A stretch of 64,000 nucleotides of DNA, taken from IMG/VR virus record IMGVR_UViG_3300045988_184153, one strand, 5' to 3'. Positions 4,769 to 36,072 of the stretch are shown in pieces. The stretch comes from a virus. The translations under genes were made by a program, and so were the position numbers. The notes beneath the pieces were generated by a model, which searched no databases, had not been told where the DNA came from, and saw only the letters and a list, made by a program, of their open reading frames with translations. Every line of letters starts with the position of its first letter. Position 1 is the stretch's first letter.

Positions 4769-4771
4769 AAA

Positions 4772-4800
4772 AAGGGAGCAACAAGCTCCTTTTTTTATTT
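4772..4800 (+). terminator. Rho-independent terminator
   Basis: GGAGCAACAAGCTCC hairpin followed by TTTTTTTATTT. Confidence 0.7.
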
Positions 4801-4862
4801 GATTTTTGGATGAAGAAATGATAAAATAAAACTAAAAATACAAAATAGAAAGAAGTAATAAA

Positions 4863-10479: not shown

Positions 10480-11990
10480 AGTTACAAAACATTTGTCAAA
10501 AATATTGACAAATGTATTAATATATGTCATCATATACTTATGATTAAATTGAATGATTATTCACGTTTTCTCTTGTTGAATTTATGGTTTAAGGAAGTAT
10601 AAAATGGGGTTGCTGAAAAATGAAAGCTTATAAAACAGAAATAGATCCAACAAAATTTCAAATTGAGCTGATACACAAAACCTTTGGATGTACTCGTTAC
10701 GTTTACAATCAGTTTGTATTTGAAAACTTGGAAAATCTACGATTAGGTAATAAATTCATATCTGCTTTTGATTATTCAAAGAGAACCAATAATGATCCCG
10801 AAACTCCTAGTTGGTTGAAGGAGGTTCCGAGTAAAGCAATAAAGCAATCTTTAATTTATGCTGATCGTGCTTTTAGAGATTATTTTTCTAAACGTAAAGG
10901 AAAACCCAAATTTAAAAAGAAAGGCTCGAATGAAAGTTTTTACCTTATAGGAACTATAAAAGTTGAACGTCATCGTATATTTGTACCAGTTTTAAAATGG
11001 ATTAAGTTGAAAGAATTTGGGTATATTCCTAAGAATATTAGTTCTGTGACCATATCTATGAAAAATGGAAGATATTATATTTCTTGCTTATGTAAAGATG
11101 AAGTAGATGAACGTATACCTTTATCTAACTACATTATGGGGATCGATTTTGGCCTAAAAGACCAGTTTATCACAGAAGATAGAATTATACCATCAATTAA
11201 TAGAACCCCACGCATTAAAAAACTGGAGAAACGTTTACGCAGAGAGCAAAGAAAACTTTCTCGCAAATATGAAGCAAATATTGTCGATAAGGTTTTTTAT
11301 AAAACGGGCACTAAAAAGGGGCAACTTAAGTCTTACAAGCGGTTGAAACCTTTGCCTGATTGTAAGAATATTCAAAAGCAGAAATTGAAAGTTGCTCATA
11401 TTTATGAGCGTTTAACTCGTATTCGGACGGAATATAATCGGAAGGCGCTACATTCTTTAGTGTTAGAGCGAAAACCAAGCTCTATTGTTATAGAAAACTT
11501 AGCAGTGCGAAACTTGATGAAAAACCGTCGTTTGAGTAAAACCATCTCGAAAGCTCAGTGGTATCAGAGTCGATTGTATTTAGAAAATCTATGTAAAAAG
11601 TTAGGCATAGAACTAAGATTAGTAGACAGATTTTACCCGTCTAGTAAACTATGTTCTGATTGTGGTTTTAAGTATAAAGATTTAAAACTGAGTGAAAGAT
11701 TTTGGACTTGTTCTAATTGTGGTAGTGAACACGATAGAGATAGAAATGCCGCTATCAATTTAGGACAATGCAAACAATATACTGTGTTGACAGCAGTTTA
11801 AATATCGTCTCTACCGTGGGTTACACGGGAAGTTAAGCTTGTGGACTGTTATATCAAATGAGAGTAGACTTTATATTTCAAAGTATAAAGACAAAATCAG
11901 ACAGGTTGAAGCAAGAAGAATTTTTAAAAATAATTTAGAAAGGATCGTAAAATATACATTTTGGTATATTTTATGTAACAGTTTTATATT
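10480..11990 (+). mobile_element. IS200/IS605-family element carrying only tnpB (IS1341-like, non-autonomous), with structured flanks
   Basis: tnpB CDS. Upstream perfect 10-bp inverted repeat ACATTTGTCA-7nt-TGACAAATGT at about 10488-10514. Downstream 190 bp with several hairpins (CCGTGGGTTACACGG, CTTTATA..TATAAAG, AAATATAC..GTATATTT) consistent with a right end and omega-RNA region. No tnpA nearby. Boundaries are approximate. Confidence 0.55.
10620..11801 (+). CDS. tnpB: TnpB (IS605 OrfB family, RuvC-like RNA-guided endonuclease), 393 aa, catalytic motifs intact
   Basis: RuvC-I GIDFGLKD, RuvC-II IVIENL, zinc finger CSDCG...CSNCG, RuvC-III HDRDRNAAINL. These are family-defining motifs. Confidence 0.85.
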   Translation: MKAYKTEIDPTKFQIELIHKTFGCTRYVYNQFVFENLENLRLGNKFISAFDYSKRTNNDPETPSWLKEVPSKAIKQSLIYADRAFRDYFSKRKGKPKFKKKGSNESFYLIGTIKVERHRIFVPVLKWIKLKEFGYIPKNISSVTISMKNGRYYISCLCKDEVDERIPLSNYIMGIDFGLKDQFITEDRIIPSINRTPRIKKLEKRLRREQRKLSRKYEANIVDKVFYKTGTKKGQLKSYKRLKPLPDCKNIQKQKLKVAHIYERLTRIRTEYNRKALHSLVLERKPSSIVIENLAVRNLMKNRRLSKTISKAQWYQSRLYLENLCKKLGIELRLVDRFYPSSKLCSDCGFKYKDLKLSERFWTCSNCGSEHDRDRNAAINLGQCKQYTVLTAV

Positions 11991-12843: not shown

Positions 12844-12925
12844 TTGACAAAAATATTTTTTTCAACTATAATAATAGTAGCGATAAAACGCCCTTCGCTA
12901 CAAAAAATTCAAAAAGGGTTTTTGT
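12844..12925 (+). promoter_or_regulatory. Perfect-consensus sigma-A promoter plus conserved leader element, copy 1, upstream of 13040..13816
   Basis: -35 TTGACA (12844-12849), 17 nt, -10 TATAAT (12867-12872). Then TAGCGATAAAACGCCCTTCGCTACAAAAAATTCAAAAAGGGTTTTT, with stem TAGCGA/TCGCTA and GCCCTT/AAGGGT+U-run. Second copy at 29611. Confidence 0.6.
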
Positions 12926-13039
12926 CTTTCTAGCAACATACTGCGATGACTTCAACCATCGTCGCACGTCTCTTGCATTCACACTGAGGGGATTGTGCAA
13001 ACGATCCCTTCTTTTAATTAAGAATCGAGGTATTTTTTT

Positions 13040-13816
13040 ATGAAACAAGTCCTAAAACGATTACAGGATGGAATTGACAATGGGTCAATCAGTATTGATG
13101 AGGCTCGCTCACAATTGGGGCCAACAAGTGTTTATTTTGACACTTGCGATTTGAAACTTTACACAAAACTAAAAAAATCAATTGATAAAAATGTTGGTTA
13201 TAACCACTTATTCTTGTTTGATCAAGATGTTAAAGAAAAGATTCCGGTTGATGTTTATAAGGATTACATCAAAAAGGCTTGCGACCATATCGAAGCGCTT
13301 TTGCACGATAACCCTAAAATGGGTCAGCGAATCGAGCTTGTGAAGAAAAATTGGCTTAGTTTAACAATCATCACATCTTCAATTGACGAAGAGTTCGAAC
13401 TTTTTAAATCCATTCGGGCCTCCTATTCGGATATCGAATTTAACGCAACCTTTGGTCAACGATACGAAGAAGATTTTAAAAACTACATTTACAAAGAACT
13501 TCGCTCAGAAGCCAATTCCAAAAAGGATTCTTCAGATCTTGGAAGTGCAACTAACTTCCTTTATAAAACAAACATCGTAAAATTCTTTGGCGGTGAAATT
13601 GCAGCAGAATTACTTTGCTCGCTAACCGGAAAATCACGTGAACGTTACGTTCTACAAGGTAAGATTACATCGGATTTTCTCAGAAGCCCTCACACAGTAG
13701 CAAATTTCTTCTCTTTGGAACAAATCGAAAAAATCGAATCTAACTTAGAGGAATATAGTATCTGGAATAATCAAATTCTAGATTTATTGAATATTGCTAA
13801 GAAAAAGCTTAAGTAA
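13040..13816 (+). CDS. Hypothetical protein (258 aa)
   Basis: ORF track. Preceded by leader copy 1. Terminator at 13823-13860. Confidence 0.65.
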   Translation: MKQVLKRLQDGIDNGSISIDEARSQLGPTSVYFDTCDLKLYTKLKKSIDKNVGYNHLFLFDQDVKEKIPVDVYKDYIKKACDHIEALLHDNPKMGQRIELVKKNWLSLTIITSSIDEEFELFKSIRASYSDIEFNATFGQRYEEDFKNYIYKELRSEANSKKDSSDLGSATNFLYKTNIVKFFGGEIAAELLCSLTGKSRERYVLQGKITSDFLRSPHTVANFFSLEQIEKIESNLEEYSIWNNQILDLLNIAKKKLK

Positions 13817-13822
13817 TTAATC

Positions 13823-13860
13823 AGAGACTGTTTTTATTGAAGACAGTCTCTCTTTTCTTT
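13823..13860 (+). terminator. Rho-independent terminator
   Basis: AGAGACTGTTTTTATTGAAGACAGTCTCT hairpin followed by CTTTTCTTTT. Confidence 0.75.
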
Positions 13861-13922
13861 TATAATTTAAGAAATTTGTAAAATATCTGAATTAATTTCA
13901 GAAAGGAAAGAAGGAAATTTTA
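13861..13922 (+). promoter_or_regulatory. Canonical promoter/5'UTR cassette: TATAAT-TTAAGAAA, inverted repeat TCTGAATTAATTTCAGA, extended SD AGGAAAGAAGGAAA, then ATG
   Basis: Direct reading. The same architecture recurs more than 30 times in the window. Confidence 0.7.
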
Positions 13923-15446
13923 ATGGTAAAGCAAACTAATGTTAGTTTTGAATCAAAATATTTGCGTATGTTGAATAATATTGCGAAAAGGATGGTTGAG
14001 AATAGCTTCGAAATTAAAGTTGACGAATCTTATTTGATAGATAATTTATCAAAAACCTCAATGAATAAAAATAGATTATCATTATCGATCAATGGCAATG
14101 GATGTCAGCTAATTATTTTCGGGGATGAGGGGGCAGATTTTAATAACATAAACTATTGTAATTTTGAAAATATTTTTACAGGGATTGTTATTAAAGATTT
14201 GAATATCGAGAAATATCTCAGAGAAGAGACTAGATATGGTAAGTTCTATGGTCATAATCTATCAAAGGTAATTGGCAAAACTTTGCTAGATGAATTATCT
14301 GATTTAAACTCAAATAATGACTTCACAAACCATCAAACTTTGAATTTAATTGATAATCTAACGCCAGGACTTGCTTTGTTAATTTATGTTAAATTAATGG
14401 AGATTGGTTCTCGTTACAACAATTACGATTCTCACGAGATCAAATACTACATTGATGACAAAGATGTTAACGAAGGTATTTATAGAGATCTTGACCTTTG
14501 TAAGTTCTTACTAGAAGATGTGAAAAATTATTTTTCAGAAGACGTTTTGGTTGATCGAGTTGCGAATGCTATTTCTGAGTATATTTCTGATGATGAAGAT
14601 ACGTATGAAAACGTAAACTATTTCTGTATTTCAAATTCGAGATGTAAAACTTTTTTTGATACAATTGTAAAATGTTTCGGCAAAGATGTATTTGTGAGTG
14701 CTATCCAAAAATTATTGAGTAGCGAACATCATAATTTAAATGATTGTGACTGCGATCATCTGCGTAATAGTGAATTAAAATCTCATTTTGTTTTCGCAAA
14801 ATCTATTCTTAAATTTTTAAAGGAAGGAGATTTCAGTGAATCACAAAAGAAAATTCTTTTTGATGAATTGATGTTTGTTTTTTTTGAGAAAGATGAACAT
14901 TCAGAATACACACTTCATCAAAAATGGCAACAGATGTTTGATGTAGCTCAAAAAAAATCTGCTTTTGATTTTCGTTTAAATGATTTTAAAGAACGATTCC
15001 AAGAAGCGTTTGGTATGTTAATTGATTACCTAAAAGAAAACAGCAATACTGATAGAACTTTATTTATCAACGCTCCAACTCATAGCGGGTGTGATTTGAA
15101 TATTTTCAAGCAAGAAAAAATTGATGATGAAGAGTTTGATATTTTTAATCCTTATCTGAAAAACTTTTTAAATTTCTTTGATTTTGCTACAAAAATTATC
15201 ACTGACCACAAGTCGGAACATCTTTTCAAAATAGTAACACTATCATACAATGATGAGTTTATAACACTAGACGAAAATGAAGATTTAAGTTCCTTGAGAA
15301 AAACAAAAGACTATCGTGAACTTCTAAATCTATCTTTGGATGTTTTTAGTGAAACTTCAGATAAATTCGATGAAGGATCGAAGCAAGTTTTAAATAAACT
15401 TATCAACAGCACAATATTCAGATTATCTCAAATTGATTCAAAATAA
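13923..15446 (+). CDS. Hypothetical protein (507 aa), starts MVKQT
   Basis: ORF track. Canonical cassette upstream. Bidirectional terminator at 15449-15476. Confidence 0.7.
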   Translation: MVKQTNVSFESKYLRMLNNIAKRMVENSFEIKVDESYLIDNLSKTSMNKNRLSLSINGNGCQLIIFGDEGADFNNINYCNFENIFTGIVIKDLNIEKYLREETRYGKFYGHNLSKVIGKTLLDELSDLNSNNDFTNHQTLNLIDNLTPGLALLIYVKLMEIGSRYNNYDSHEIKYYIDDKDVNEGIYRDLDLCKFLLEDVKNYFSEDVLVDRVANAISEYISDDEDTYENVNYFCISNSRCKTFFDTIVKCFGKDVFVSAIQKLLSSEHHNLNDCDCDHLRNSELKSHFVFAKSILKFLKEGDFSESQKKILFDELMFVFFEKDEHSEYTLHQKWQQMFDVAQKKSAFDFRLNDFKERFQEAFGMLIDYLKENSNTDRTLFINAPTHSGCDLNIFKQEKIDDEEFDIFNPYLKNFLNFFDFATKIITDHKSEHLFKIVTLSYNDEFITLDENEDLSSLRKTKDYRELLNLSLDVFSETSDKFDEGSKQVLNKLINSTIFRLSQIDSK

Positions 15447-20976: not shown

Positions 20977-22878
20977 TTGAGAAACAATAAAAAAATTCTA
21001 AATAGGATTGCAGGATCATCTGCTATTGTTATTACAGCTCTAGGTTCTGGAGCTGGTGCAGTAGCAACTCAGATTCCTGGAATTATGAGTACAGTTCTTG
21101 CTGAAGAAGCTAAGAACGTCAATGCAACAGCAACCCTTGATGTAGGTATTCAAGAAAATAGTAATTTTGGACGAACTGATAAATTCGAAATCAGTGCCGA
21201 AGTAAAACAACCAGTCAAGGAAGGCGATACTGTAACATTTACAGCTCAAGGTATTAGTGCTACAGCCTTAAATAATCAAGAAGTTAAAACTGCTGATGGT
21301 ACTGTAATTGGTGTTATCAAGGCTAAGGTGGGAGTTGGTTCTCCGACAGGACCTGACTATTGGAAAACTGTTTATTATAAAGATAAAAACAACCTCTCAA
21401 AAGAAAACAAAGACTTGAAACCTACAGACCAAGAAGTTTCTGAGATTCAAGTTGTATTCAACAAGAAAGCAGAAGAGTTCCAAAATCTATCCTTTAAAGT
21501 TGGATCAAATAATAATCGAACAGTTATCACTGTGCCAGTAAAAGATAAGGTTGAAAAAATCAATATCAAGCTTGGTGAAAAAACCCTAGTTGAAAAGGAA
21601 AATAAAGTTTCTGCTGCTAAAATTGTTCCAAATAATTTAAATAAAAATTATTTTGGAGTTATTAGTGAAACATCGAATATCTACAACACAGAGAAAGGTT
21701 TAGGTGGTGGTGTTTCCACATTCGGCTCAGTGCCAGCAAAAAACAAAGGTTTTAAGACGGGTGATAAATTCACAATTGAATTACCTAATGATGCTGGAGT
21801 AAAAGTTGATGTTAATCGTGCCTATAAAGTTGGAGAGGTTATTACACTAAGTCACGGTAGACTTTTAAGGGAAGAAGTTACAACAGTGAACACTAACGGT
21901 GTTATACTTACACAAAAAAATGATATTAAAGTCAAAGTTGTGGAGATTAATGCTGATAAAGCTGTTTTTGAAGTTGTTGATCAGCCAAACTTTTATTACG
22001 AAGATGTTAACATTCCATTGGCTGTTGTTGCAACAGACGTAAGTAAAGTTGATCAAGCAAACAACCGTGTTAATGTTAAGTTCAAAACATCTTTCGAATC
22101 AAAATCAGATCCAACTTTAAATACTACAGAAGAATCAAAAGACGCTTACATTCCAATTCGTGGAACAAGCCTTTCTTCTACTGGTGTTAAATTAGAGTTT
22201 AAAACAACACAATGGCGTGACGTTGATACGAATAAGAACCTGAAAGCTTCTAAGGTTGACACAAAGACTTATCCAGCTGATAAGATTGAAGGTTACACTT
22301 TTGTTCGTACAGATACAGATACAAAAACTGGTAACGTTATCCACTTCTTCAAGAAGGTTGGTGATACAGGATCACGTGATGATGTAAAGGATATTAAGAC
22401 AACACGTTTCCTTGAAAAAGGAACAAATAAGGTTCTTAAACCTGAACAAAAAGGTGATAAATTCTTAGAAGCCGGAACAATAGATGGTTATACTTTCGTA
22501 AATTCTGAGGTAAAAGGTGATATCACAACTCACTTCTTTAAGAAAGCTGAAGAACCTAAAAAGCCAGAAGTTCCTAAAACTACAGAACAACCTAAGACTA
22601 CGGAAGTTCCAAAAACAACTGAAGAGCCTAAAACAACTGAAACTCCTGCAACAGAGGAGCCTAAGAAACCAGAAGCTCCAAAAACAACAGAGGCTCCTAA
22701 AACGGAAGAACCTAAAAAGGTAGAAAAACCTAAAACTGCCGACGTTAAAACACCAGACAAAAAAGACGCTGTGAAGACAGGAGCTAACGCTTCTGTTGCA
22801 TTCGCTCCACTTATCGGGATTGCCAGCGGTGTTGGTGCTATTGGTGCCGCAGTCTACGTCGTAAAAAAACGTAAATAA
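20977..22878 (+). CDS. Cell-wall-anchored surface protein (633 aa), TTG start, signal peptide, C-terminal P/T/E-rich repeats and AVKTGANAS sorting signal
   Basis: Signal peptide ILNRIAGSSAIVITALGSGAGAVATQ. C-terminal VKTGANAS...TM...KKRK. Its last about 200 nt before the repeats are near-identical to 23034..25028. Confidence 0.8.
   Translation: MRNNKKILNRIAGSSAIVITALGSGAGAVATQIPGIMSTVLAEEAKNVNATATLDVGIQENSNFGRTDKFEISAEVKQPVKEGDTVTFTAQGISATALNNQEVKTADGTVIGVIKAKVGVGSPTGPDYWKTVYYKDKNNLSKENKDLKPTDQEVSEIQVVFNKKAEEFQNLSFKVGSNNNRTVITVPVKDKVEKINIKLGEKTLVEKENKVSAAKIVPNNLNKNYFGVISETSNIYNTEKGLGGGVSTFGSVPAKNKGFKTGDKFTIELPNDAGVKVDVNRAYKVGEVITLSHGRLLREEVTTVNTNGVILTQKNDIKVKVVEINADKAVFEVVDQPNFYYEDVNIPLAVVATDVSKVDQANNRVNVKFKTSFESKSDPTLNTTEESKDAYIPIRGTSLSSTGVKLEFKTTQWRDVDTNKNLKASKVDTKTYPADKIEGYTFVRTDTDTKTGNVIHFFKKVGDTGSRDDVKDIKTTRFLEKGTNKVLKPEQKGDKFLEAGTIDGYTFVNSEVKGDITTHFFKKAEEPKKPEVPKTTEQPKTTEVPKTTEEPKTTETPATEEPKKPEAPKTTEAPKTEEPKKVEKPKTADVKTPDKKDAVKTGANASVAFAPLIGIASGVGAIGAAVYVVKKRK
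22375..22580 (+). repeat. About 200-nt near-identical (about 97%) segment shared with 24522-24727 (encodes RDDVKDIKTTRFLEKGTNKVLKPEQKGDKFLEAGTIDGYTFVNSEVKGDITTHFFKKAEEPKKPE)
   Basis: Direct alignment by eye; only a few synonymous differences. Confidence 0.85.
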
Positions 22879-23033
22879 TAAAAACTTAAATAAAAATAAA
22901 AACTAAGATCGTTGCGAAATACATTCGTGGCGGTCTTTTTTTTTTGTATATATATAAGAATATAGTTGCAAATATCCTATAATACAAAAGAGTGAAGAAT
23001 GATAAACAATAAAAATTTCGTGAGGGAATAAAT

Positions 23034-25028
23034 TTGACAAATAAGAAAAAATTAATGAATCGTATTGCTGGTTCCTCTGCAATTTTAGTAACCGCATTAG
23101 GTTCTGGAGTTGGAACTGTATTAACTCAAGCACCGAGCTTATCTAACACTGTATTTGCAGCAGAAGGTAGAGCTGTAACAAATATAGAGGGTACTGGTAA
23201 ACTCGAGATCCTTACAAAACCGAAAGTTGAGGGTACAAAAATTTACAGAACACCACAATTCGATACCAACCAAAGTTACGAGTTTACGGTGAACGACAGT
23301 AATCTTAAGGAAGGCGATTATATCCCAATTCAAGGTGAAGGTTTGAATCTCTTACCAGATGACGTTCGTGTAGGCGAAACTGTTGTTGGAAAATTGGTTT
23401 ATGATAAGACAGATTTGAATCTTCCTAAATCAGGAAACTGGAATGCGAGCGAAGATAATGTGAATGACTCGACACATAAACTTTTAGGAACTCAACATTG
23501 GAAGATTGTGTTTAATAAAGAAATCGAGAAATTCCAAAATCCAAAAATAAAACTTGATATTAAAAATAAACGTATTGAGGGTCACAAGAATTACAAACCT
23601 AACGGTGGAGCTGACGTCACGCTATCAATGAAATTTGGTAACAAGATGTTGATAAACGAAACTGTTAAGGTTGAAGGTTTGGATAAACCACAAGAAAAAA
23701 ATGGCATTTACTTTGGTAGTGGTGATGGTTGGTGGACAACTACACTTGAAACAAGTGGAAAGCTCGTCAGCGATAATTTCTTTCCAATGGCAGTTACTAC
23801 ACCACTAAACGAATCAGGGCAACCAAACTTTGAAGTTGGAGATTTAATTGAATGGAACTTTGGTGAAGGAAGTGAAAACTTCGTCGTAACTCCGAAAGAT
23901 TATGTAAAACTTGGTAGCGAATTAAAACACGTTGACACATTAGATAATTTCAATCTAACTTCTTACAAAGTAAATAAAAATACAGGTGCTATCTTAGTTG
24001 ATGATAACAATGTAAAAGTTAAGCTTGTCGAAGCTGGTAAGAATAAAATTGTGGTACAAGTCGTTCGTGCAGGAGCCCCTGGTACAATCTCAAACTTTGG
24101 AAATGATTTCAAGGCAGAACTTACATCAACTAAAGGTGTGGACTTAAACAAGATGGTTGCGCCACCCGTCGCAGTAAACACAAAACTAATCCGTAACGGA
24201 AAAGTTTTAGCAGAGCAAAACAGAAACTTTACTCCTAAAATTTCAGGCGTAGCAATCGGTGCCAACGCTAATTTAGTTAAACGTGGATCTGTTGTAGTTA
24301 CAGGTGTTGATGAACAAGGTAAGAATCTATTCAAAGCGGTTGTTGCTGTAAACAACGAAAAGGTTGGTACAGACTACAAGGTTGATGAATCCAAATACAA
24401 CAAAGTTGAAGGATACACATATTCTGGACTTAAACAAGGATCTGCACCAGTTTCAGGTAAAATTATTGAGGGAACTCAAACAGTTACACTTCTATTTAAG
24501 AAAAATCAAGATGAGAAACCTCGTGATGATGTAAAGGATATTAAGACAACACGTTTCCTTGAAAAAGGAACAAATAAGGTTCTTAAACCTGAACAAAAAG
24601 GCGATAAATTCTTAGAAGCTGGAACAATCGACGGTTATACTTTCGTAAATTCTGAGGTAAAAGGTGATATCACAACTCACTTCTTCAAGAAGGCTGAAGA
24701 GCCCAAAAAGCCAGAAGCTCCTAAAACAACTGAGACCCCTAAGACAACTGAAGAACCTAAAAAAGTAGAAGAACCTAAGACCACCGAGATTCCTACGACA
24801 GAAGAACCTAAGAAACCAGAACAACCTAAGACAACAGAAGAGCCTAAAACGACAGAAGAGCCTAAAAAGGTAGAAAAACCAAAAAACCCTGATGTTAAAA
24901 CATCAGACAAGAAAGAAGCTGTTAAGACTGGAGCTAACGCTTCTTCTACAATAGCTCCACTAATCGCTGTTGCTATTGGATCTGGCGTAATTGGTGCTTC
25001 ACTATATGTTTCTAAAAAACGTAAGTAA
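23034..25028 (+). CDS. Cell-wall-anchored surface protein (664 aa), TTG start, signal peptide, AVKTGANAS sorting signal
   Basis: Signal peptide LMNRIAGSSAILVTALGSGVGTVLTQAPSLSNTVFA. C-terminal repeats and anchor as in 20977..22878. Confidence 0.8.
   Translation: MTNKKKLMNRIAGSSAILVTALGSGVGTVLTQAPSLSNTVFAAEGRAVTNIEGTGKLEILTKPKVEGTKIYRTPQFDTNQSYEFTVNDSNLKEGDYIPIQGEGLNLLPDDVRVGETVVGKLVYDKTDLNLPKSGNWNASEDNVNDSTHKLLGTQHWKIVFNKEIEKFQNPKIKLDIKNKRIEGHKNYKPNGGADVTLSMKFGNKMLINETVKVEGLDKPQEKNGIYFGSGDGWWTTTLETSGKLVSDNFFPMAVTTPLNESGQPNFEVGDLIEWNFGEGSENFVVTPKDYVKLGSELKHVDTLDNFNLTSYKVNKNTGAILVDDNNVKVKLVEAGKNKIVVQVVRAGAPGTISNFGNDFKAELTSTKGVDLNKMVAPPVAVNTKLIRNGKVLAEQNRNFTPKISGVAIGANANLVKRGSVVVTGVDEQGKNLFKAVVAVNNEKVGTDYKVDESKYNKVEGYTYSGLKQGSAPVSGKIIEGTQTVTLLFKKNQDEKPRDDVKDIKTTRFLEKGTNKVLKPEQKGDKFLEAGTIDGYTFVNSEVKGDITTHFFKKAEEPKKPEAPKTTETPKTTEEPKKVEEPKTTEIPTTEEPKKPEQPKTTEEPKTTEEPKKVEKPKNPDVKTSDKKEAVKTGANASSTIAPLIAVAIGSGVIGASLYVSKKRK
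24522..24727 (+). repeat. Second copy of the about 200-nt near-identical segment (see 22375-22580)
   Basis: Direct alignment. Confidence 0.85.
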
Positions 25029-25142
25029 TATTTTAAAATAAAAGATTATCACTAAACTTATTTAGTGATAATTTTTTTATAAAAAACTTATTTTTATTAA
25101 GCTATAATAGAGAGAGAAATAAAAAAAGGAATGGTATTTATC

Positions 25143-26963
25143 TTGAATAAAAGAAAATTGTCATCTATTTTGGCTACTGGTGCATTAATGGTAACGGTGG
25201 CCCCTGCATTAGGAACATTTGTACAAGTAGGTAATAATATCGCACACGCAGAAGTTTTCAAAGCCGGATCTACTGGAACACGAACGATTAAATTTAATGT
25301 AAAAGCTGGAGAATCAGTGACCTCAAAGACTGAAACTGTTACAGAGCCCGTTGACTTGATTCTCGTTGTAGACGGATCAGGATCCTTCACTGAGCCTTTT
25401 AATGATGGTAAAAACCCATCTCGAAGAAAATTCCAAGCTGCTCTTATCGACGCTGCGAAATTAGTTGAATCTTTACCAGAGGGATCTCAGGTTATGATTG
25501 CTTCCTATACTTGGAATACGACAGAATCGTACACATCTAACAGAATCACTAATTTAATTCCAAAAGCAGACGCCGCTAGAATTTTGAAAGATATCCTAAA
25601 TAAACCATCTGATTTAGACTGGTATACAACTTGGGAAAGATACTTATCTGATGTCGATAAAAAGATTTACAGCTCTTACGAAAAATTACCATACGAAGAA
25701 GCTTATGAAAAATCTAAAGCAAACAAAAATAAATATGTTTCTGTAGTGCAATTCACCGATGAATGGGTGCCAAATGAGGATATTGATACTTCTTTTGCTG
25801 AGTGGTCTAAGAAGAATGCAAAGACCTTTATGAGTGTAATTTATAACAAGACTGATAATGCTGCAATTTCTGAAGCTCAGATGAAGAAAATTGGACACCC
25901 AAATATTTACAACGCACGTGGAAAAACTGATGATCAACGTCAAAAGGACATTATTGAAAAATTCAAAACATCAGGTTTAAAAACAACAGTTATTAAAAAT
26001 CGAGTCTCTCCAGAGGGTGTTGTGACAGTTAAGGCCGAAAAGGGTATTGATATCACTGAAGTTGAATTAGTATCTCCTAAAGGAGTAAAAGAAAAACTTG
26101 AAAAACAACCAGGTGACGCAATCTCTTGGTCTTGGAAGGGTAAATTTGCTGAAGATGGAGAATATACTCTAAACTACAAGTTTACTGGAACACCTTCAGA
26201 AACAAAATCAATTACTGGTACTGTTCAAGTCTCAAATAAAGAGGTAGCGAAAGCTATTGATACCATTGAACCAAACAAATCTTCCGCTGTTGATACAGCT
26301 AAAGAGGACATTCCTTTCAAAACAATTGAAGAAAAGGATCCTACACTTCCATTTGGTGAACGTAAGGTTAAAGTTAAAGGGGTTCTAGGTGAGCGCACGA
26401 TTACAAAGACATACGATGTTCTTAATGGAAAACGTGTAGGTGATCCTAAAGTTGACACTAAGGTTACAAAAGAACCAGTTGACGAAGTTGTTCTTGTTGG
26501 TACCAAAGTAGAAGAGAAAGTAACTTATAAGACAATTCACAAGGGTGATGATGGTAAGGTTCTCAAAGAAGAAAACACTGCTGCTGAAAAGTCAGAGTTT
26601 GAAGGTTACAAGTACGTTAAAACTGAAGCTGATAACTCAGACAAGTTAAACGTCGTGACAACTCACTATTACCATAAGCTAATCACAACCTATAAGGGTG
26701 TGGATGAAAACGGCAAGGAAGTTGTTTTAGAAAAAGTAGACGGAACTAAGGACAAAAAAGATTTCAAGGGTTACATCTTCGAAAAGACAGAAAAATTAGA
26801 TAACGGTGACGTTGTTCATCACTACAAGGCTAAAAAGGCTGATGAGAAGAAAAAACCGGTAGAAACCGGAGCTAATGCTGGATCAATGTTACTTCCGCTC
26901 GGAGCGCTGGGAGCCTCTGTTGCTCTTGTTAGCGTCGCTAGATTTAAGTCTAAAAGAAAATAA
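25143..26963 (+). CDS. vWA-domain surface adhesin, tandem paralog 1 (TTG start at 25143 preferred over the ORF-track ATG 25131); C-terminal PVETGANAGS sorting signal
   Basis: MIDAS-like DLILVVDGSGSF motif. Signal peptide NKRKLSSILATGALMVTVAPALG...AHAE. AAGGA sits 12 nt before the TTG. C-terminal about 530 nt are about 90% identical to paralog 2. Confidence 0.75.
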   Translation: MNKRKLSSILATGALMVTVAPALGTFVQVGNNIAHAEVFKAGSTGTRTIKFNVKAGESVTSKTETVTEPVDLILVVDGSGSFTEPFNDGKNPSRRKFQAALIDAAKLVESLPEGSQVMIASYTWNTTESYTSNRITNLIPKADAARILKDILNKPSDLDWYTTWERYLSDVDKKIYSSYEKLPYEEAYEKSKANKNKYVSVVQFTDEWVPNEDIDTSFAEWSKKNAKTFMSVIYNKTDNAAISEAQMKKIGHPNIYNARGKTDDQRQKDIIEKFKTSGLKTTVIKNRVSPEGVVTVKAEKGIDITEVELVSPKGVKEKLEKQPGDAISWSWKGKFAEDGEYTLNYKFTGTPSETKSITGTVQVSNKEVAKAIDTIEPNKSSAVDTAKEDIPFKTIEEKDPTLPFGERKVKVKGVLGERTITKTYDVLNGKRVGDPKVDTKVTKEPVDEVVLVGTKVEEKVTYKTIHKGDDGKVLKEENTAAEKSEFEGYKYVKTEADNSDKLNVVTTHYYHKLITTYKGVDENGKEVVLEKVDGTKDKKDFKGYIFEKTEKLDNGDVVHHYKAKKADEKKKPVETGANAGSMLLPLGALGASVALVSVARFKSKRK

Positions 26964-27092
26964 AAACTAACTTATAAGTTATAAAAAAGGTATCCAAATT
27001 GGATACCTTTTGGAATTTTTAAAATCACTAAGAATATCAAGATACGATAACCTATAATAGATAAAGAAATAAAAAAAGGATTGGTACTTATT

Positions 27093-28919
27093 TTGAATAA
27101 AAAATTATCATCTATCTTAGCTACTGGCGCATTAATGGTTACTGTATCGCCAGCACTTGGAACTTTTGTTCAGGTTGGCAACAACATCGTACACGCAGAA
27201 GCCTTTAAAGCGGGATCTACCGGGACACGAACATTAAAATTCAATGTTAAAGCTGAAGAAAAGATAAATACGAAAACTGAGACTGTAGCTGAACCAGTTG
27301 ATTTAATTATGATTATCGACGGATCTGGATCTTTTATTGTTCCTTTTGATAGTGGAGATAATCCACAGAGACAAAAAGTAAACGTGGCATTAAGTGACGC
27401 CTTGAAACTTGTAGAATCTCTTCCTGAAGGATCACAAGTTATGATTGCCTCTTACACTTGGAACTCAAAAGATTCTTACGCAGCGAAAGGTGTTAGTAAT
27501 TTAATTTCAAAGGCTGACGCCATCAAAACTCTTAATGATATCAAGGACAAATCAAAACTATCTGATTTTGACTGGTACACAACTTGGGAGAATTATCTTA
27601 AGACTGTAGATTCAAAAATTTACAATAAAAATTCTGAAACTCTTCCATACGAAGAAGCATACGAAAAGAGCACAGCTAAAAAGAACAAGTACGTATCTGT
27701 AGTTCAATTTACAGATGAGTGGATTCAGAACGAAGACATCGACACCTCTTTTGCTGATTGGTCTAAGAAGAATGCGAAGACTTTTATGAGTGTCATTTAT
27801 CCTAAAATTAATGGAAGTACAAAGTCTGAAGAGCAGATGAAAAAAATCGGACACCCTAATATTTACAACGCTCGTGGAAAAACTGACGCAGTACGACAAA
27901 AAGATATTATTGAAAAATTCAAAAGCTCTGGTTTGAAAACAACTGTCACCAAGGATCGTATTTCTCCTGACGTGGTTGTATCTGTTAAAGCAGAAGACGG
28001 TGTAGATTTGACGGAAGTTGAGTTGGTATCTCCTACTGGAGCAAAGAAAAAACTTGAAAAAAACTCCGGTGACGCAACATTTTGGTCTTGGAAAGGCAAA
28101 CTAGAAGAAGATGGTGAGTATACACTTAATTACAAATTTACGGGTACACCTTCTGAGACTAAAACTATTACAGGAAGTGTGCAAGTTTCAAATAAAGAAG
28201 TGGTAAAATCAGTTGATACGATTGAGCCTAACAAGTCAAGTTCTGTAGATAAATCAGAAGAGGATATTCCTTTTAAAACGATTGAAGAAAAGGATCCTAC
28301 ACTTCCACTGGGAGAACGTAAGGTTAAAGTTAAGGGTGAAATCGGTAAGAAATCCACCACTAAGACTTACAATATGGTGAACGGTAAACGTGTGGGTGAT
28401 CCTAAAGTTGATACCAAGGTTACAAAAGAACCAGTTGACGAAGTTGTTCTCGTTGGTACCAAAGTAGACGAAAAAGTAACTTATAAGACTATTCACAAGG
28501 GTGACGATGGTAAGGTTCTTAAAGAAGAAAACACTGCTGCCGAAAAATCCGAGTTCGAAGGATACAAGTACGTTAAAACAGAATCTGATAATTCGGATAA
28601 GTTGAACGTCGTGACAACTCACCACTACCATAAGCTCATCACTACCTACAAGGGTGTGGATGAAAACGGCAAGGAAGTTGTTTTAGAAAAAGTTGACGGA
28701 ACTAAGGACAAGAAAGACTTCAAGGGTTACATCTTTGAAAAGACAGAAAAATTAGATAACGGTGACGTGGTTCATCACTACAAGGCTAAAAAGGCTGATG
28801 AGAAGAAAAAACCAGTAGAAACTGGAGCTTCAGCTGGATCAATGTTACTTCCAATTGGTGCACTAGGAGCCTCTGTTGCTCTTCTAGGAGTTGCTAAGTT
28901 TAAATCTAAAAGAAAATAA
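27093..28919 (+). CDS. vWA-domain surface adhesin, tandem paralog 2 (TTG start at 27093 preferred over 27081); PVETGASAGS sorting signal
   Basis: DLIMIIDGSGSF motif. Matching signal peptide. Conserved C-terminal half (THHYHKLITTYKGVDENGKEVVLEKVDGTKDKKDFKGYIFEKTEKLDNGDVVHHYKAKKADEKKKPVETGA). Confidence 0.75.
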   Translation: MNKKLSSILATGALMVTVSPALGTFVQVGNNIVHAEAFKAGSTGTRTLKFNVKAEEKINTKTETVAEPVDLIMIIDGSGSFIVPFDSGDNPQRQKVNVALSDALKLVESLPEGSQVMIASYTWNSKDSYAAKGVSNLISKADAIKTLNDIKDKSKLSDFDWYTTWENYLKTVDSKIYNKNSETLPYEEAYEKSTAKKNKYVSVVQFTDEWIQNEDIDTSFADWSKKNAKTFMSVIYPKINGSTKSEEQMKKIGHPNIYNARGKTDAVRQKDIIEKFKSSGLKTTVTKDRISPDVVVSVKAEDGVDLTEVELVSPTGAKKKLEKNSGDATFWSWKGKLEEDGEYTLNYKFTGTPSETKTITGSVQVSNKEVVKSVDTIEPNKSSSVDKSEEDIPFKTIEEKDPTLPLGERKVKVKGEIGKKSTTKTYNMVNGKRVGDPKVDTKVTKEPVDEVVLVGTKVDEKVTYKTIHKGDDGKVLKEENTAAEKSEFEGYKYVKTESDNSDKLNVVTTHHYHKLITTYKGVDENGKEVVLEKVDGTKDKKDFKGYIFEKTEKLDNGDVVHHYKAKKADEKKKPVETGASAGSMLLPIGALGASVALLGVAKFKSKRK

Positions 28920-28967: not shown

Positions 28968-29519
28968 TTAATCTTCTGCCGCAGCTAGTACAGCCAGTAC
29001 ATCATCAGCTACAGCATTGACCACATCATCGAATGTAGCTTTATCAAATGCAAAGTCTACAAACAAATGACTGTTTGTGGGGTGGTCGAAATCGATGATA
29101 ACCTCATCAATTAGGTTATCAGAAACGGTTACATCCCAACCCCAAGAAGCTACTGCAAGAGGCTTTCTTGACACGAAGCTAAAGAAATCCTTTCGGAACT
29201 TAAGCTCGTCATTTGGGTTCTTGATGACCCATAATGATTTGCTATGGTTGACTTTTTTAAAGTCCATCAAAGCTTTAGCCACAACATCTTTATCAAAGAT
29301 GTCAGCCTCTTTCGCTTTAGCAACAATAGAAATTGGATCATTGCTGTTCAAAAAACTAGTAGTACGTCTGTTAGTTCTAATATTTTGAACATTTACAATA
29401 TGATCAACTCGACCTTTAAGAGAGCTGATCATTTTTGTTGCTGTAGTTGATTTATTCAAGAAATCAACTACTTCTTCTTTTGTGAATGTTGTTTTCATAT
29501 TTTTCTCCTTCTTTTCCAA
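28968..29519 (-). CDS. Hypothetical protein (183 aa), paralog of 59603..60103 (shared acidic C-terminus)
   Basis: Shared C-terminus ...FDHPTNSHLFVDFAFDKATFDDVVNAVADDVLAVL versus ...FDNKDHSDLFIDFAFNKNGVGFDDVIDALADDVVKLM. 5'UTR hairpin CCAAACATAGATGTTTGG plus AAAGAAGGAG. Confidence 0.65.
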   Translation of the reverse strand: MEKKEKNMKTTFTKEEVVDFLNKSTTATKMISSLKGRVDHIVNVQNIRTNRRTTSFLNSNDPISIVAKAKEADIFDKDVVAKALMDFKKVNHSKSLWVIKNPNDELKFRKDFFSFVSRKPLAVASWGWDVTVSDNLIDEVIIDFDHPTNSHLFVDFAFDKATFDDVVNAVADDVLAVLAAAED

Positions 29520-29610: not shown

Positions 29611-29775
29611 TTGACAAAAAATATTTTTTTTACTATAATAATATTAGCGATAAAACGCCCTTCGCTACAAAAATTCAAAGAGGGTTTTTTCTAGTAAAGT
29701 GGTGATGGCTACCATACATCACCCTATCTCTTACATTTATATTAAGGGGTTGCTTTGCAGCCTCTTTTTTTTATT
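29611..29775 (+). ncRNA. Candidate small RNA: perfect sigma-A promoter (TTGACA-17-TATAAT), conserved about 80-nt leader (copy 2 of the element at 12844), unique about 50-nt 3' part, terminator hairpin plus U8; no downstream + strand gene
   Basis: TTGACA 29611-29616, TATAAT 29634-29639. The conserved TAGCGATAAAACGCCCTTCGCTACAAAAATTCAAAGAGGGTTTTTT. Hairpin GGTGATGGCTACCATACATCACC. Terminator GGTTGCTTTGCAGCC followed by TCTTTTTTTT. Flanking genes are on the minus strand. Confidence 0.5.
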
Positions 29776-29833
29776 TATATTGAAAGTAAAAAAAAGACCG
29801 GCTAGGTCTTTTAATTATCTAAATTTGATTTCG

Positions 29834-30379
29834 TCACAAGCAATAAGATTTGATTTCCTCTATAAATAATTCAGTTTGAAGTTCATCAAATAGAATTTTT
29901 GTATTGGTGAGATTATTGTTAATAACTCCGCACTCATCGTAACTAATAAAGAACAACAAGGTTTGTACAGTTTTAACATCCGTCTTAGACAAATCTCCCT
30001 TAATAAACTTCTTTATCAAAACTTGCGAAGCAACTCTCATTTTATTAAAAAATAAGGAATTGTCACCGGAATCAAATCCTGGAACAGAAAAAGAGATCCC
30101 GGTTCTGAGCAATGAATCAGAACTCTCAATTTCTGGTACAGAATATTTGTTCTTGATGACGAAACATCTTTTACTTGGAATGTAATAAAGCTCCAAAGTG
30201 TCATCAGTTGGAAGTTTTAAATTTTCGATTTCATCAATATTGCTTGAAGAATCACATTGCAAGAATGATAATCCACCAGAATCAATGCTAATGATAGTAC
30301 CTTCAGAAATGGAATCAATATCTTCCAAAAGTGATTCGAAACCAATAAATTTATTGTTATTATTTAAAGTTTTAATCAT
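29834..30379 (-). CDS. Hypothetical protein (start moved to MIKTLNN at 30379; the ORF-track N-terminus is the translated RBS)
   Basis: GGGGAAAGAAGGAGAACAAA-ATG on the minus strand. TATAAT plus inverted repeat TCTGATATAATTTCAGA upstream. Confidence 0.6.
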   Translation of the reverse strand: MIKTLNNNNKFIGFESLLEDIDSISEGTIISIDSGGLSFLQCDSSSNIDEIENLKLPTDDTLELYYIPSKRCFVIKNKYSVPEIESSDSLLRTGISFSVPGFDSGDNSLFFNKMRVASQVLIKKFIKGDLSKTDVKTVQTLLFFISYDECGVINNNLTNTKILFDELQTELFIEEIKSYCL

Positions 30380-34124: not shown

Positions 34125-35039
34125 TCAGACAAATACCACCATCGCCTTGTAGCAATCCGGTTTGTCCGGGAAGCGAACTAGCGACACCTCCTTGTTTGTA
34201 ATCCTTCGTGTGCTAAACTTGATATTTTCAAAGCTACTCTCATCTAAGTAAACGACGTAAAGTCGGTTACAGATATCACCCTTTTCAAGTCGGTAAACAT
34301 CTTGATTTTCAAATAGACTTTGTGCAAGTTTATTTGGATTTTTGCGTGCAGCCTTCACAGCCTCATCGTGCGATTCATAATCCTTTTCAAACATAGCTCC
34401 GAGGCTACGGGAAACCTTTTGGTCGTATGGTACGCCATCAACAAAATAGTCCAAACCAGCACTATGCTTCAGCGTTGGGAACACTTCCGAATTGTTTTTA
34501 AAAATCTCATACTCGATAAAATCATTTCGTAGTGCGTTGAAGTGTGTTACGCTAAGTTGATTAAGTGCCATATCCACTACTAGTTTCTCACGTGTTCGGC
34601 GAGAAATACAGTAACGGCGATTAATTTGCTGAATGGTTTGATCCAAGTTTCCTTGACGATTGGCCCAGAAATTATCCTGTTGCGATTCCAAACGATAATT
34701 TCGCTCTGCCGTTCGATACTGATTGTACTTGTCATACTTGTACTTGCCGTTGGGCAATACTGTCATCAGTTCATTTCGTGCGAACTGGAGTGCAATATTG
34801 TAGTCCCAATGTTCGATAATGATATCGTATGCTTTAGCTTTCGGAATCCGAAACAGACCCTTATTCTTTCCAGTTTTTAGTTTATAAGGTTCCTGATCGC
34901 CACCGGCAAGAATAAACAACTTTTCAGCCAAATCCTTTGCAGTTTCAGTTGTAAAAATCTTTTTAACCGTGTATCGATTGATTTCTTTCTTAATATTCTG
35001 GGACAGTTTCTTCTCTTCTGTTTTACTCATCAGAATCAC
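34125..35039 (-). CDS. Hypothetical protein (304 aa), overlaps the upstream primase-like gene by 17 nt (operon)
   Basis: ORF track. AAGAAGGGAAG RBS sits inside the end of the upstream gene. Confidence 0.6.
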   Translation of the reverse strand: MILMSKTEEKKLSQNIKKEINRYTVKKIFTTETAKDLAEKLFILAGGDQEPYKLKTGKNKGLFRIPKAKAYDIIIEHWDYNIALQFARNELMTVLPNGKYKYDKYNQYRTAERNYRLESQQDNFWANRQGNLDQTIQQINRRYCISRRTREKLVVDMALNQLSVTHFNALRNDFIEYEIFKNNSEVFPTLKHSAGLDYFVDGVPYDQKVSRSLGAMFEKDYESHDEAVKAARKNPNKLAQSLFENQDVYRLEKGDICNRLYVVYLDESSFENIKFSTRRITNKEVSLVRFPDKPDCYKAMVVFV

Positions 35040-36012
35040 TTCCCTTCTTAATCAATTTAAGCAAATCATTCCAATCTTTAACTGGTACAGTTCGTGAATC
35101 CGGTTTTTCTCTGATAGCTCCAGAAAAATGTTCCTTAAACAAATCATAAGCACCATTACCCGCTTCATCATTATCAGTTGCGATGATTAGCTGTAATTCT
35201 TTAAGATTCAAACCAAATCCAGTAGTTAGTTGTTCGATGATTCGTTCAACCTTTGTTAATGATCCACCGATTGCAACATACATAGTTTTAGATTCGGATT
35301 TTGGAATATTGTAAGGAATCTTATCTCGTACAGAATCAGAATAGCCGATTAGTTCCACATAGGATAATAGATCTATAACACCCTCGCAAAAGACAATCCG
35401 CTCTACATCTTTAAGAGAATTACAGTCCTTTCCAAGGATATAAAAGAACCCTTTAGATCCCGGCATATTTAATCGAATACGATTACCATCTTTGTCAGGA
35501 TGTGTCCCGATAACCTCAGCTCCGATACGATGTCCGTCCTTATCCAGTTGCAAAAAGACTAAGTTTCCAGAGGCGTTTTCTAAAATAAGTCCTCGTTTGA
35601 ATACAACATCTACCAACATCTCGTTTAGTTTACGTTCATCAATCAGATACTCCTTAGTTTGCCAAGCGTTCGGGTCATACACAATCTCGTCGAAGTTAGA
35701 ATCTTCTGCAATTTTCAGATCAACTTCTTTAAGTTTGTAAGACTTTCCGTTTGTCTTTCCGCCTAAGAAATTAAGCGCTGCTTTTTTGTCAACGATTCCC
35801 TGTTTCATCAAATAGGTCACAAGAGTATCGACCCCACGGCCACCTTCTTTTGTTGACCATCGGAACCAAGCGTCTTTGTATTCACCTTCAAGAGTGATTT
35901 GAAGTGAGTCGTGATCAACTAACTGAGCATTTCGTCCTTTCACAATATACGGAACTCCAAGGATGTCAAGTGCTGCTAGTGTTTTTGAAAATACTTTCTT
36001 TGTTTTTACCAT
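35023..36012 (-). CDS. Toprim-domain primase-like protein (DnaG/TraC-primase type), start moved to MVKTKK
   Basis: Toprim signatures IVFCEGVIDLLS (conserved Glu) and LIIATDNDEAGNGAY (DxD). Cassette TATAATTTTAGAAA, GAGTGTATACCGCACTC, AGAAAGAGGGAAGAAA-ATG on the minus strand. Confidence 0.65.
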   Translation of the reverse strand: MVKTKKVFSKTLAALDILGVPYIVKGRNAQLVDHDSLQITLEGEYKDAWFRWSTKEGGRGVDTLVTYLMKQGIVDKKAALNFLGGKTNGKSYKLKEVDLKIAEDSNFDEIVYDPNAWQTKEYLIDERKLNEMLVDVVFKRGLILENASGNLVFLQLDKDGHRIGAEVIGTHPDKDGNRIRLNMPGSKGFFYILGKDCNSLKDVERIVFCEGVIDLLSYVELIGYSDSVRDKIPYNIPKSESKTMYVAIGGSLTKVERIIEQLTTGFGLNLKELQLIIATDNDEAGNGAYDLFKEHFSGAIREKPDSRTVPVKDWNDLLKLIKKGSDSDE

Positions 36013-36072
36013 TTTCTTCCCTCTTTCTAGAGTGCGGTATACACTCAATATCAATATTTCTAAAATTATAGA
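36013..36072 (-). promoter_or_regulatory. Promoter/5'UTR cassette for the primase-like gene, back-to-back with the + cassette at 36090-36140
   Basis: Direct reading of the reverse complement. Confidence 0.6.

Follow-up and report, generated by a model that had tools for sequence, protein, structure and literature searches.

The DNA analyzed here, referred to as the window, is a 64,000-nucleotide (64-kb) stretch of a virus record that carries two related predicted transcription units on its plus strand. The first unit (copy 1) precedes two genes, and the second (copy 2) lies in an intergenic region between two minus-strand genes, one divergent and upstream, the other convergent and downstream; this orientation of both flanking genes agrees with the first-pass annotation. 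The features of both units and their surroundings are listed in Table 1. Four tandem paralogous genes, the last of them stopping shortly before the copy-2 locus, encode proteins of ~610–660 aa; the three that were scanned carry G5 and SSSPR51 surface-protein domains.

Table 1. Positions of the two RNA units, their predicted structural parts and other features of the window.
Feature	Position	Strand	Description
Promoter of copy 2	29611-29639	+	TTGACA, 17-nt spacer, TATAAT; perfect promoter
P1, 5'-terminal hairpin	29645-29667	+	UAGCGA UAAAACGCCCU UCGCUA; 6 bp, 11-nt loop
Proposed pseudoknot	29657-29685	+	Loop GCCCU (29657-29661) with AGGGU (29681-29685)
U-rich tract and conserved CUAG	29685-29693	+	Between pseudoknot and P2; from alignments
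P2, two-part hairpin	29694-29734	+	P2a and P2b, loop GCUACCAUA
P2a	29694-29697 with 29731-29734	+	GUAA/UUAC
P2b	29701-29707 with 29717-29723	+	GGUGAUG/CAUCACC
Intrinsic terminator of copy 2	29744-29772	+	10-bp stem, UUU loop, U8; sets predicted RNA 3' end
Upstream neighbor	28968-29498	-	Divergent, 176 aa; ATG with GGAGA ribosome-binding site
Downstream neighbor	29834-30379/30412	-	Convergent, 181 aa (192 aa if the start is 30412)
Terminator of convergent gene	29792-29812	-	Separate; AAAAGACC-UAGCC-GGUCUUUU and U tract
Copy 1 paralog	12844-13019	+	Promoter 12844-12872 (perfect); RNA from ~12879; same P1, pseudoknot, P2 and terminator
Terminator of copy 1	12986-13011	+	Followed by CUUCUUUU
Genes led by copy 1	13040-15446	+	258 aa and 507 aa; no family match for either
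Third perfect promoter	855-827	-	
TnpB-like ORF	10620-11801	+	OrfB_IS605 and Cas12f1-like TNB domains
RAGATH-18 RNA	11838-11917	+	RF03064, 72.5 bits, full-length
Four tandem paralogous genes	20977-28919	+	
DUF3991 and Toprim gene	35023-36054	-	Primase-like

The copy 2 promoter matches the sigma-70 consensus at 12 of 12 positions, with TTGACA at 29611-29616 and TATAAT at 29634-29639; it had been described as perfect, and the same match is found at copy 1. Three 12/12 TTGACA-17-TATAAT sites occur in the 64-kb window, as compared to 0.04 expected by chance. The third, on the minus strand, was considered as a further family member and rejected because it leads to an unrelated small membrane ORF: an AT-rich leader of ~105 nt is followed by a membrane-like ORF of ~60 aa (ATG at 718; to ~540). 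At copy 2 the sequence TAGCGA begins 5 nt past the -10 hexamer, and the predicted start of the RNA is A29646 or G29647. The terminator sequence is AAGGGGUUGC-UUU-GCAGCCUCUU (29744-29766) with eight T residues at 29765-29772, and its folding energy is -13.1 kcal/mol (z -4.4). A terminator with U8 had been correctly described before, but its stem is longer than was noted, at 10 bp. The predicted copy 2 RNA therefore extends from ~29646 to ~29770, a length of ~120–127 nt, or roughly 125 nt. The whole RNA folds at -34 kcal/mol (z -3.1), better than shuffled sequences.

The convergent gene has a terminator of its own (29812-29792; -9.9 kcal/mol, z -4.6), which is outside the copy 2 RNA but delimits it. 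The U tract of the copy 2 terminator is complementary to the A tract that precedes this neighboring terminator (29763-29797 on the plus strand; 14 nt, 93%), and a read-through transcript past copy 2 could form an extra hairpin from these complementary tracts. In each of the 15 copy-2 contexts examined (the window and 14 variants), the convergent gene follows copy 2 and has the same orientation. Copy 2 has the sequence properties by which sRNA genes are generally recognized: it has its own promoter and intrinsic terminator, it is intergenic and no co-oriented gene follows it, and it is conserved above the level of the neighboring sequence with substitutions that preserve structure. The earlier description of a free-standing unit with a strong terminator and no gene of the same orientation next to it was borne out in these respects.

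The neighboring genes gave little indication of function. The neighboring proteins had no match in Pfam or PADLOC. For the convergent gene, PHROGs gave a single marginal hit (E 0.0084), to a family whose function is unknown, and AlphaFold models of neighboring proteins reached pLDDT values of 55 and 38 (38 for the convergent gene), too poor for a fold search. A relationship of the copy 2 neighbors to the protein led by copy 1 was also considered; comparison showed both to be unrelated to it.

Copy 1 and copy 2 are 93% identical over 75 nt by BLAST (12849-12923 and 29617-29689), of which ~28 nt belong to the promoter. A conserved 5' part is shared with copy 1, as had been claimed, but the near-identical transcribed portion is only ~50 nt (29645-29694) and not the 80 nt given previously. 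The 3' part of copy 2 had been regarded as a unique segment of ~50 nt. It instead aligns helix for helix with copy 1 and is a diverged homolog, containing the same P2 helices and a homologous terminator. P2a is GUAA/UUAC in copy 2 as compared to GCAA/UUGC in copy 1, and P2b is GGUGAUG/CAUCACC as compared to UGCGAUG/CGUCGCA. In both copies P2 is followed by the single strand AUUYAYAYU and then by a terminator with a GAGG..CCUC base; the two copies are paralogous over their entire length.

In the case of copy 1, the ATG at 13040 stands 25 nt past the terminator, and the gap holds a ribosome-binding site and has no room for a second promoter. The terminator is located between promoter and gene, as in attenuator leaders. 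Because the terminator precedes the ATG without room for another promoter, copy 1 behaves, on sequence grounds, as an attenuator-type leader whose terminator would have to be read through for expression of 13040-15446. The U tract is CUUCUUUU at copy 1 as compared to U8 at copy 2 of the window and U6–U9 among copy-2 terminators. The stretch GUCUCUUGCAUU is unchanged in all but one of the copy-1-type variants, including the diverged L193 and L196 (L195 reads AUCUCUUACAUU), and the stretch matching it varies among copy-2 variants. A convincing conserved antiterminator pairing was not found in the copy 1 and copy 2 alignments; the candidates, UCUCUU with the terminator 5' arm and AGAGGG with the terminator 3' arm, are weak or broken in some variants.

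Neither the 42%- nor the 37%-identical homologs of the 258-aa protein are preceded by this RNA; their leaders are different or lacking, which indicates that the RNA is not bound to this family of genes. In L203–L205, the 37%-identical homolog has a plain promoter with no leader RNA and is followed by a GmrSD_N (PF03235) protein (in L203, 3001-3783 for the homolog and 3860-4801 for the next gene). This arrangement hints that the 258-aa gene family can sit in defense-like operons. A DUF3991-Toprim gene, like the one in the window, is also present in L201 (1334-2320), near a distant homolog of the 258-aa protein.

The predicted RNA begins with hairpin P1, which is unchanged in 29 of 30 variants. 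In the remaining variant, L195, two compensatory pair changes (G-C to A-U, and G-C to U-A) preserve P1, whose loop is 4 nt, and the pseudoknot is absent; this locus is at a contig edge in a low-coverage assembly. The proposed pseudoknot joins the P1 loop to AGGGU across an A-rich linker, CAAAAAUUCAAAG (29668-29680), as read from the sequence. One of its C-G pairs is changed to U-A in L193, L194 and L196 (loop GCCUU, partner AAGGU) and to U.G in L200 and L197. An H-type pseudoknot formed from the P1 loop and AGGGU is probable, with support from one or two independent substitution events. Position 29680 varies between G and A, either of which could pair with U29662, yet this U is already paired within P1.

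Downstream of the pseudoknot, the second pair of P2a is U-A in the copy-2 type and C-G in the copy-1 type, and five of the seven P2b pairs are changed on both sides. The sequence ACCAUA in the P2b loop is constant across all copy-2 variants. Across the family, both bases have changed in 8 of the 11 pairs of the terminator helix.

A metagenome scan yielded 51 loci, 31 of them real members, and these occur in exactly two contexts, the copy-1 type and the copy-2 type, on contigs of up to 393 kb. The variants (n = 30) come from saliva or gut metagenomes, and, according to identical-protein look-ups, the locus is present in many assemblies of human metagenomes. More distant members (L193–L200) were added through diverged homologs of the flanking proteins. 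An nhmmer profile and covariance model R1 revealed no further copies, either in the window or across ~280 kb of related loci. The pattern ATAAAACGCCCTTN{8,30}AGGGTTTT had only 11 chance matches, in unrelated taxa, in a scan of 185,579 species genomes. A looser pattern gave more than 120 matches on viral contigs, BLAST of both RNA copies against all of these gave only a chance match of 23 nt in GC-rich coding sequence, and BLAST of the RNA against plasmids and phages gave no match. T-box leaders of another organism (GGTGGTACCGCG, then a ATAAAACGCCCTT...AAGGGTTTT terminator) were caught by the metagenome scan at L164, L158, L169, L178–L180, L182, L191, L192 and L148; they share 21 specified bases with the module, which was judged a coincidence.

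The 176-aa upstream gene is missing in about half of the element variants (compared in L142, L143, L149, L151, L161, L174 and L186). In these elements copy 2 directly follows the G5 gene and has the promoter TTGACA...TGaTAAACT. The copy 2 RNA is kept despite the replaced promoter and the lost upstream gene, and with the same 5-nt spacing to the -10 hexamer. The 5-nt gap between the -10 and TAGCGA is in fact common to four promoter versions: those of window copy 1 and window copy 2, TTGACA..TGaTAAACT, and TTGACT..TAAAAT in L193.

Alignments of the variants were used to assess selection on the RNA. In 24 sequences, 95.5% of cells were paired and 11 pairs were changed on both sides; in 30 sequences with the pseudoknot included, these values were 96.2% and 17 pairs, as compared to 42–61% of cells paired in slid controls. 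These counts correspond to few independent events, since all variants belong to one narrow element family and many of the changes separate the paralogs and were inherited. Among copy-2 orthologs alone, 97.9% of cells were paired, with three pairs changed on both sides and several wobble-preserving changes. The 5' module is 90–100% identical as compared to 75–84% for the flanking coding sequence. The compensatory helices, the conservation of the module and its retention after the exchange of promoter and upstream gene support the notion that this RNA is under selection as RNA. Sequence comparison also supports copy 2 as a stand-alone, structured and selectively maintained RNA gene with a predicted transcript. 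The two copies together are a well-supported candidate for a new RNA family of a known kind, the terminator-ended bacterial sRNA gene.

Known RNA classes did not account for the pair. In Rfam 15, neither copy 1 nor copy 2 had a match at the gathering threshold, and permissive scans gave only sub-threshold, terminator-like noise. The sole Rfam match in the window was RAGATH-18, which lies 37 nt past the TnpB-like ORF and is probably the guide-type RNA of a TnpB-like insertion sequence. A T-box leader was considered and rejected: there was no Rfam match, and the T-box leaders picked up by the metagenome scan (the L164 group) resemble the module in nothing but a terminator-like string. A type III toxin-antitoxin system was likewise rejected, as the RNA contains no tandem repeats and no PADLOC match was obtained.

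The window has 32.3% GC and no tRNA genes, and most of its ORFs have no Pfam or NCBIfam match. Its DUF3991-Toprim gene is typical of conjugative or plasmid-like elements. Related contigs, 267–393 kb long, derive from saliva and from other human metagenomes. Inocles are giant extrachromosomal elements of ~350 kb and ~32% GC, of oral (saliva) origin, with mostly unknown genes and the InoC marker gene (PMC12340149). In GC content, size of the related contigs, saliva origin and scarcity of family matches, the window and its relatives agree with that description and are compatible with an Inocle-type element of oral Streptococcus. The functions of ~95% of the genes of these giant mouth-streptococcal elements are elusive (PMC12340149), and a word search of the same text gave no occurrence of 'sRNA' or 'non-coding'.

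The explanation that we tentatively prefer, and to which we give slightly less than an even chance, is that copy 2 is an independently transcribed sRNA gene, paralogous to an attenuator-type leader, whose product probably acts via its 5' pseudoknot on a factor shared with that leader. A single factor, be it a small ligand or a protein from the element or its host, would recognize the surface of the invariant 5' pseudoknot and set the efficiency of termination, or read-through, at copy 1. Copy 2, with the strongest possible promoter, a U6–U9 terminator and nothing to lead, would yield an abundant terminated RNA. Given this combination of consensus promoter and terminator, the copy 2 RNA would offer this pseudoknot surface in trans, serving as the factor's decoy or buffer, or else as a second effector. 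It would not be a base-pairing sRNA with a seed of its own. A role as decoy fits two differences between the copies, namely the poorer U tracts of copy 1 and the near invariance of GUCUCUUGCAUU in copy 1 as compared to its drift in copy 2. A more specific form of this explanation, possible but on the doubtful side, is that the 45-nt 5' pseudoknot is a new ligand- or protein-sensing module, specific to giant plasmid-like oral-streptococcal elements, that is used both in cis, as the attenuator of a two-gene operon, and in trans, as an abundant free RNA buffering the same signal.

Alternatively, copy 2 could serve as a conditional terminator, a switch identical to that of copy 1, bypass of which would repress the gene at 29834-30379 through antisense RNA or polymerase collision. 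The two units are convergent in 15 of 15 contexts and 55–100 nt apart, whatever lies upstream, and the L142-type terminator, which has an A run on one side and a U run on the other, is the only one between the units, so that their transcripts would overlap. However, a second terminator (29792-29812) stands between the units in the window, and gene order is conserved across the whole narrow family, which makes the synteny weak evidence. The longer U tracts of the copy-2 terminators (U6–U9) and the variation in copy 2 of the stretch that is nearly invariant in copy-1 leaders also argue against this gating, and we consider it unlikely.

The first-pass annotation had proposed a family of sRNAs with a shared scaffold and differing targeting regions, the variable 3' part being the targeting region. 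Such a base-pairing sRNA, acting in trans, would combine the 5' scaffold with a seed for mRNA targets in the P2 loop (ACCAUA) or the C-rich P1 loop. The ACCAUA of the P2b loop is kept in all copy-2 variants. C-rich seeds are typical of Firmicute sRNAs, and the P1 loop, GCCCUU, is likewise C-rich and could pair with GAAGGG in the 5' untranslated region of the convergent gene. Only two paralogs were found, however, one being a leader. Instead of a variable single-stranded seed, the 3' part forms a conserved hairpin whose stem drifts with compensation. A motif search of the window for complements of the P2 and P1 loops returned only the RNAs themselves or chance-level matches, and complementarity above chance was not found in the 64 kb. 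RNA duplex energies calculated against start regions of the window gave long-loop duplexes that were uninterpretable and were discarded. Action by base pairing is, in our estimation, as improbable as antisense gating.

Still less probable is a function at the level of DNA, in which TAGCGA-N11-TCGCTA at the start is a repressor site common to both promoters and the short transcript itself does nothing. In both copies the palindrome falls precisely on +1, 29 of 30 variants keep its arms unchanged, and the consensus strength of both promoters suits repression. An operator would leave unexplained why loop and linker are invariant, why a C-G pair of the loop with AGGGU became U-A, and why the P2 and terminator helices 50–120 nt downstream are compensated. 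Moreover, L195 keeps the pairing although the spacing is reduced from 11 to 4 nt. An operator at the +1 palindrome could coexist with a function of the RNA.

The remaining possibility, that copy 2 is a non-functional relic, a MITE or a small protein gene, is very improbable: copy 2 does duplicate a leader and an ORF can be drawn, but copy 2 is better conserved than the flanking coding sequence and was retained through the upstream rearrangement; a MITE or terminal repeat, which the first-pass annotation had allowed for, is at odds with two copies in 64 kb, two metagenome contexts and the presence only of AT-rich low-complexity inverted repeats, with no terminal inverted or tandem repeats; and the ORF (29699-29869, 56 codons), also considered as a conserved ORF or leader peptide, has no ribosome-binding site, runs through the terminator, varies from 20 to 56 codons among variants, is absent in L152, L167 and L168, and lies in a different frame from the ORF of copy 1.

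The RNA pair is among the few features of the window with a readable logic, because of its strong conservation, consensus promoters and compensated helices. If the 5' module binds a factor, as the preferred explanation holds, it would offer a way into the regulation of the element and a new case of a leader and a free-standing paralog working together. If a sensing module is indeed used both in cis and in trans, these elements would gain their first described regulatory RNA circuit. If copy 2 is only one more small RNA without a known target, the pair would still constitute a new candidate family that RNA databases could usefully include.

Several known systems resemble these RNAs in part. As in ToxIN, a mobile element carries a promoter, a structured RNA able to form a pseudoknot, a terminator and a gene whose protein product has no assigned function; however, the copy 1 and copy 2 RNAs have no tandem repeats, and the downstream protein has no match to ToxN/AbiQ or to any PADLOC entry. 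The lambda 6S RNA at pR'/tR' and the HK022 put RNA are short, promoter-proximal, terminated transcripts of antitermination systems. Copy 1, also on a mobile element, has a similar layout in which strong promoter, short structured RNA and terminator precede the genes. However, neither RNA shows sequence similarity to copy 1 or copy 2. Lambda Q acts through promoter DNA sites, but in the present case it is the RNA that is conserved and the promoter that can be exchanged, and put RNA would make terminators irrelevant, whereas here the terminators are conserved by compensation.

The preQ1-I and SAM-II riboswitch aptamers are H-type pseudoknots with an A-rich tail. The proposed pseudoknot shares with them a short 5' hairpin whose loop pairs downstream across an A-rich linker, a size of ~40 nt and a position upstream of a terminator. 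In contrast to these aptamers, the present RNA had no covariance-model match in a 500-nt search even at E values up to 10, its loop and stem sizes and sequences differ, it contains a long conserved second hairpin, and its downstream genes are unrelated to the metabolism of queuosine or SAM.

A further parallel is found in SreA/SreB of Listeria and EutX/Rli55 of Enterococcus and Listeria, which are reportedly orphan or trans-acting copies of riboswitch or attenuator leaders. Those RNAs have known aptamers (SAM, B12) and partners (prfA mRNA, EutV), whereas here there is no Rfam match and the action in trans is one that we infer. The likeness is one of organization: in each case a terminated, leader-type RNA carries the sensing module of a cis regulator and, as a free RNA, can act in trans or sequester the regulator, as is proposed here for copy 2.
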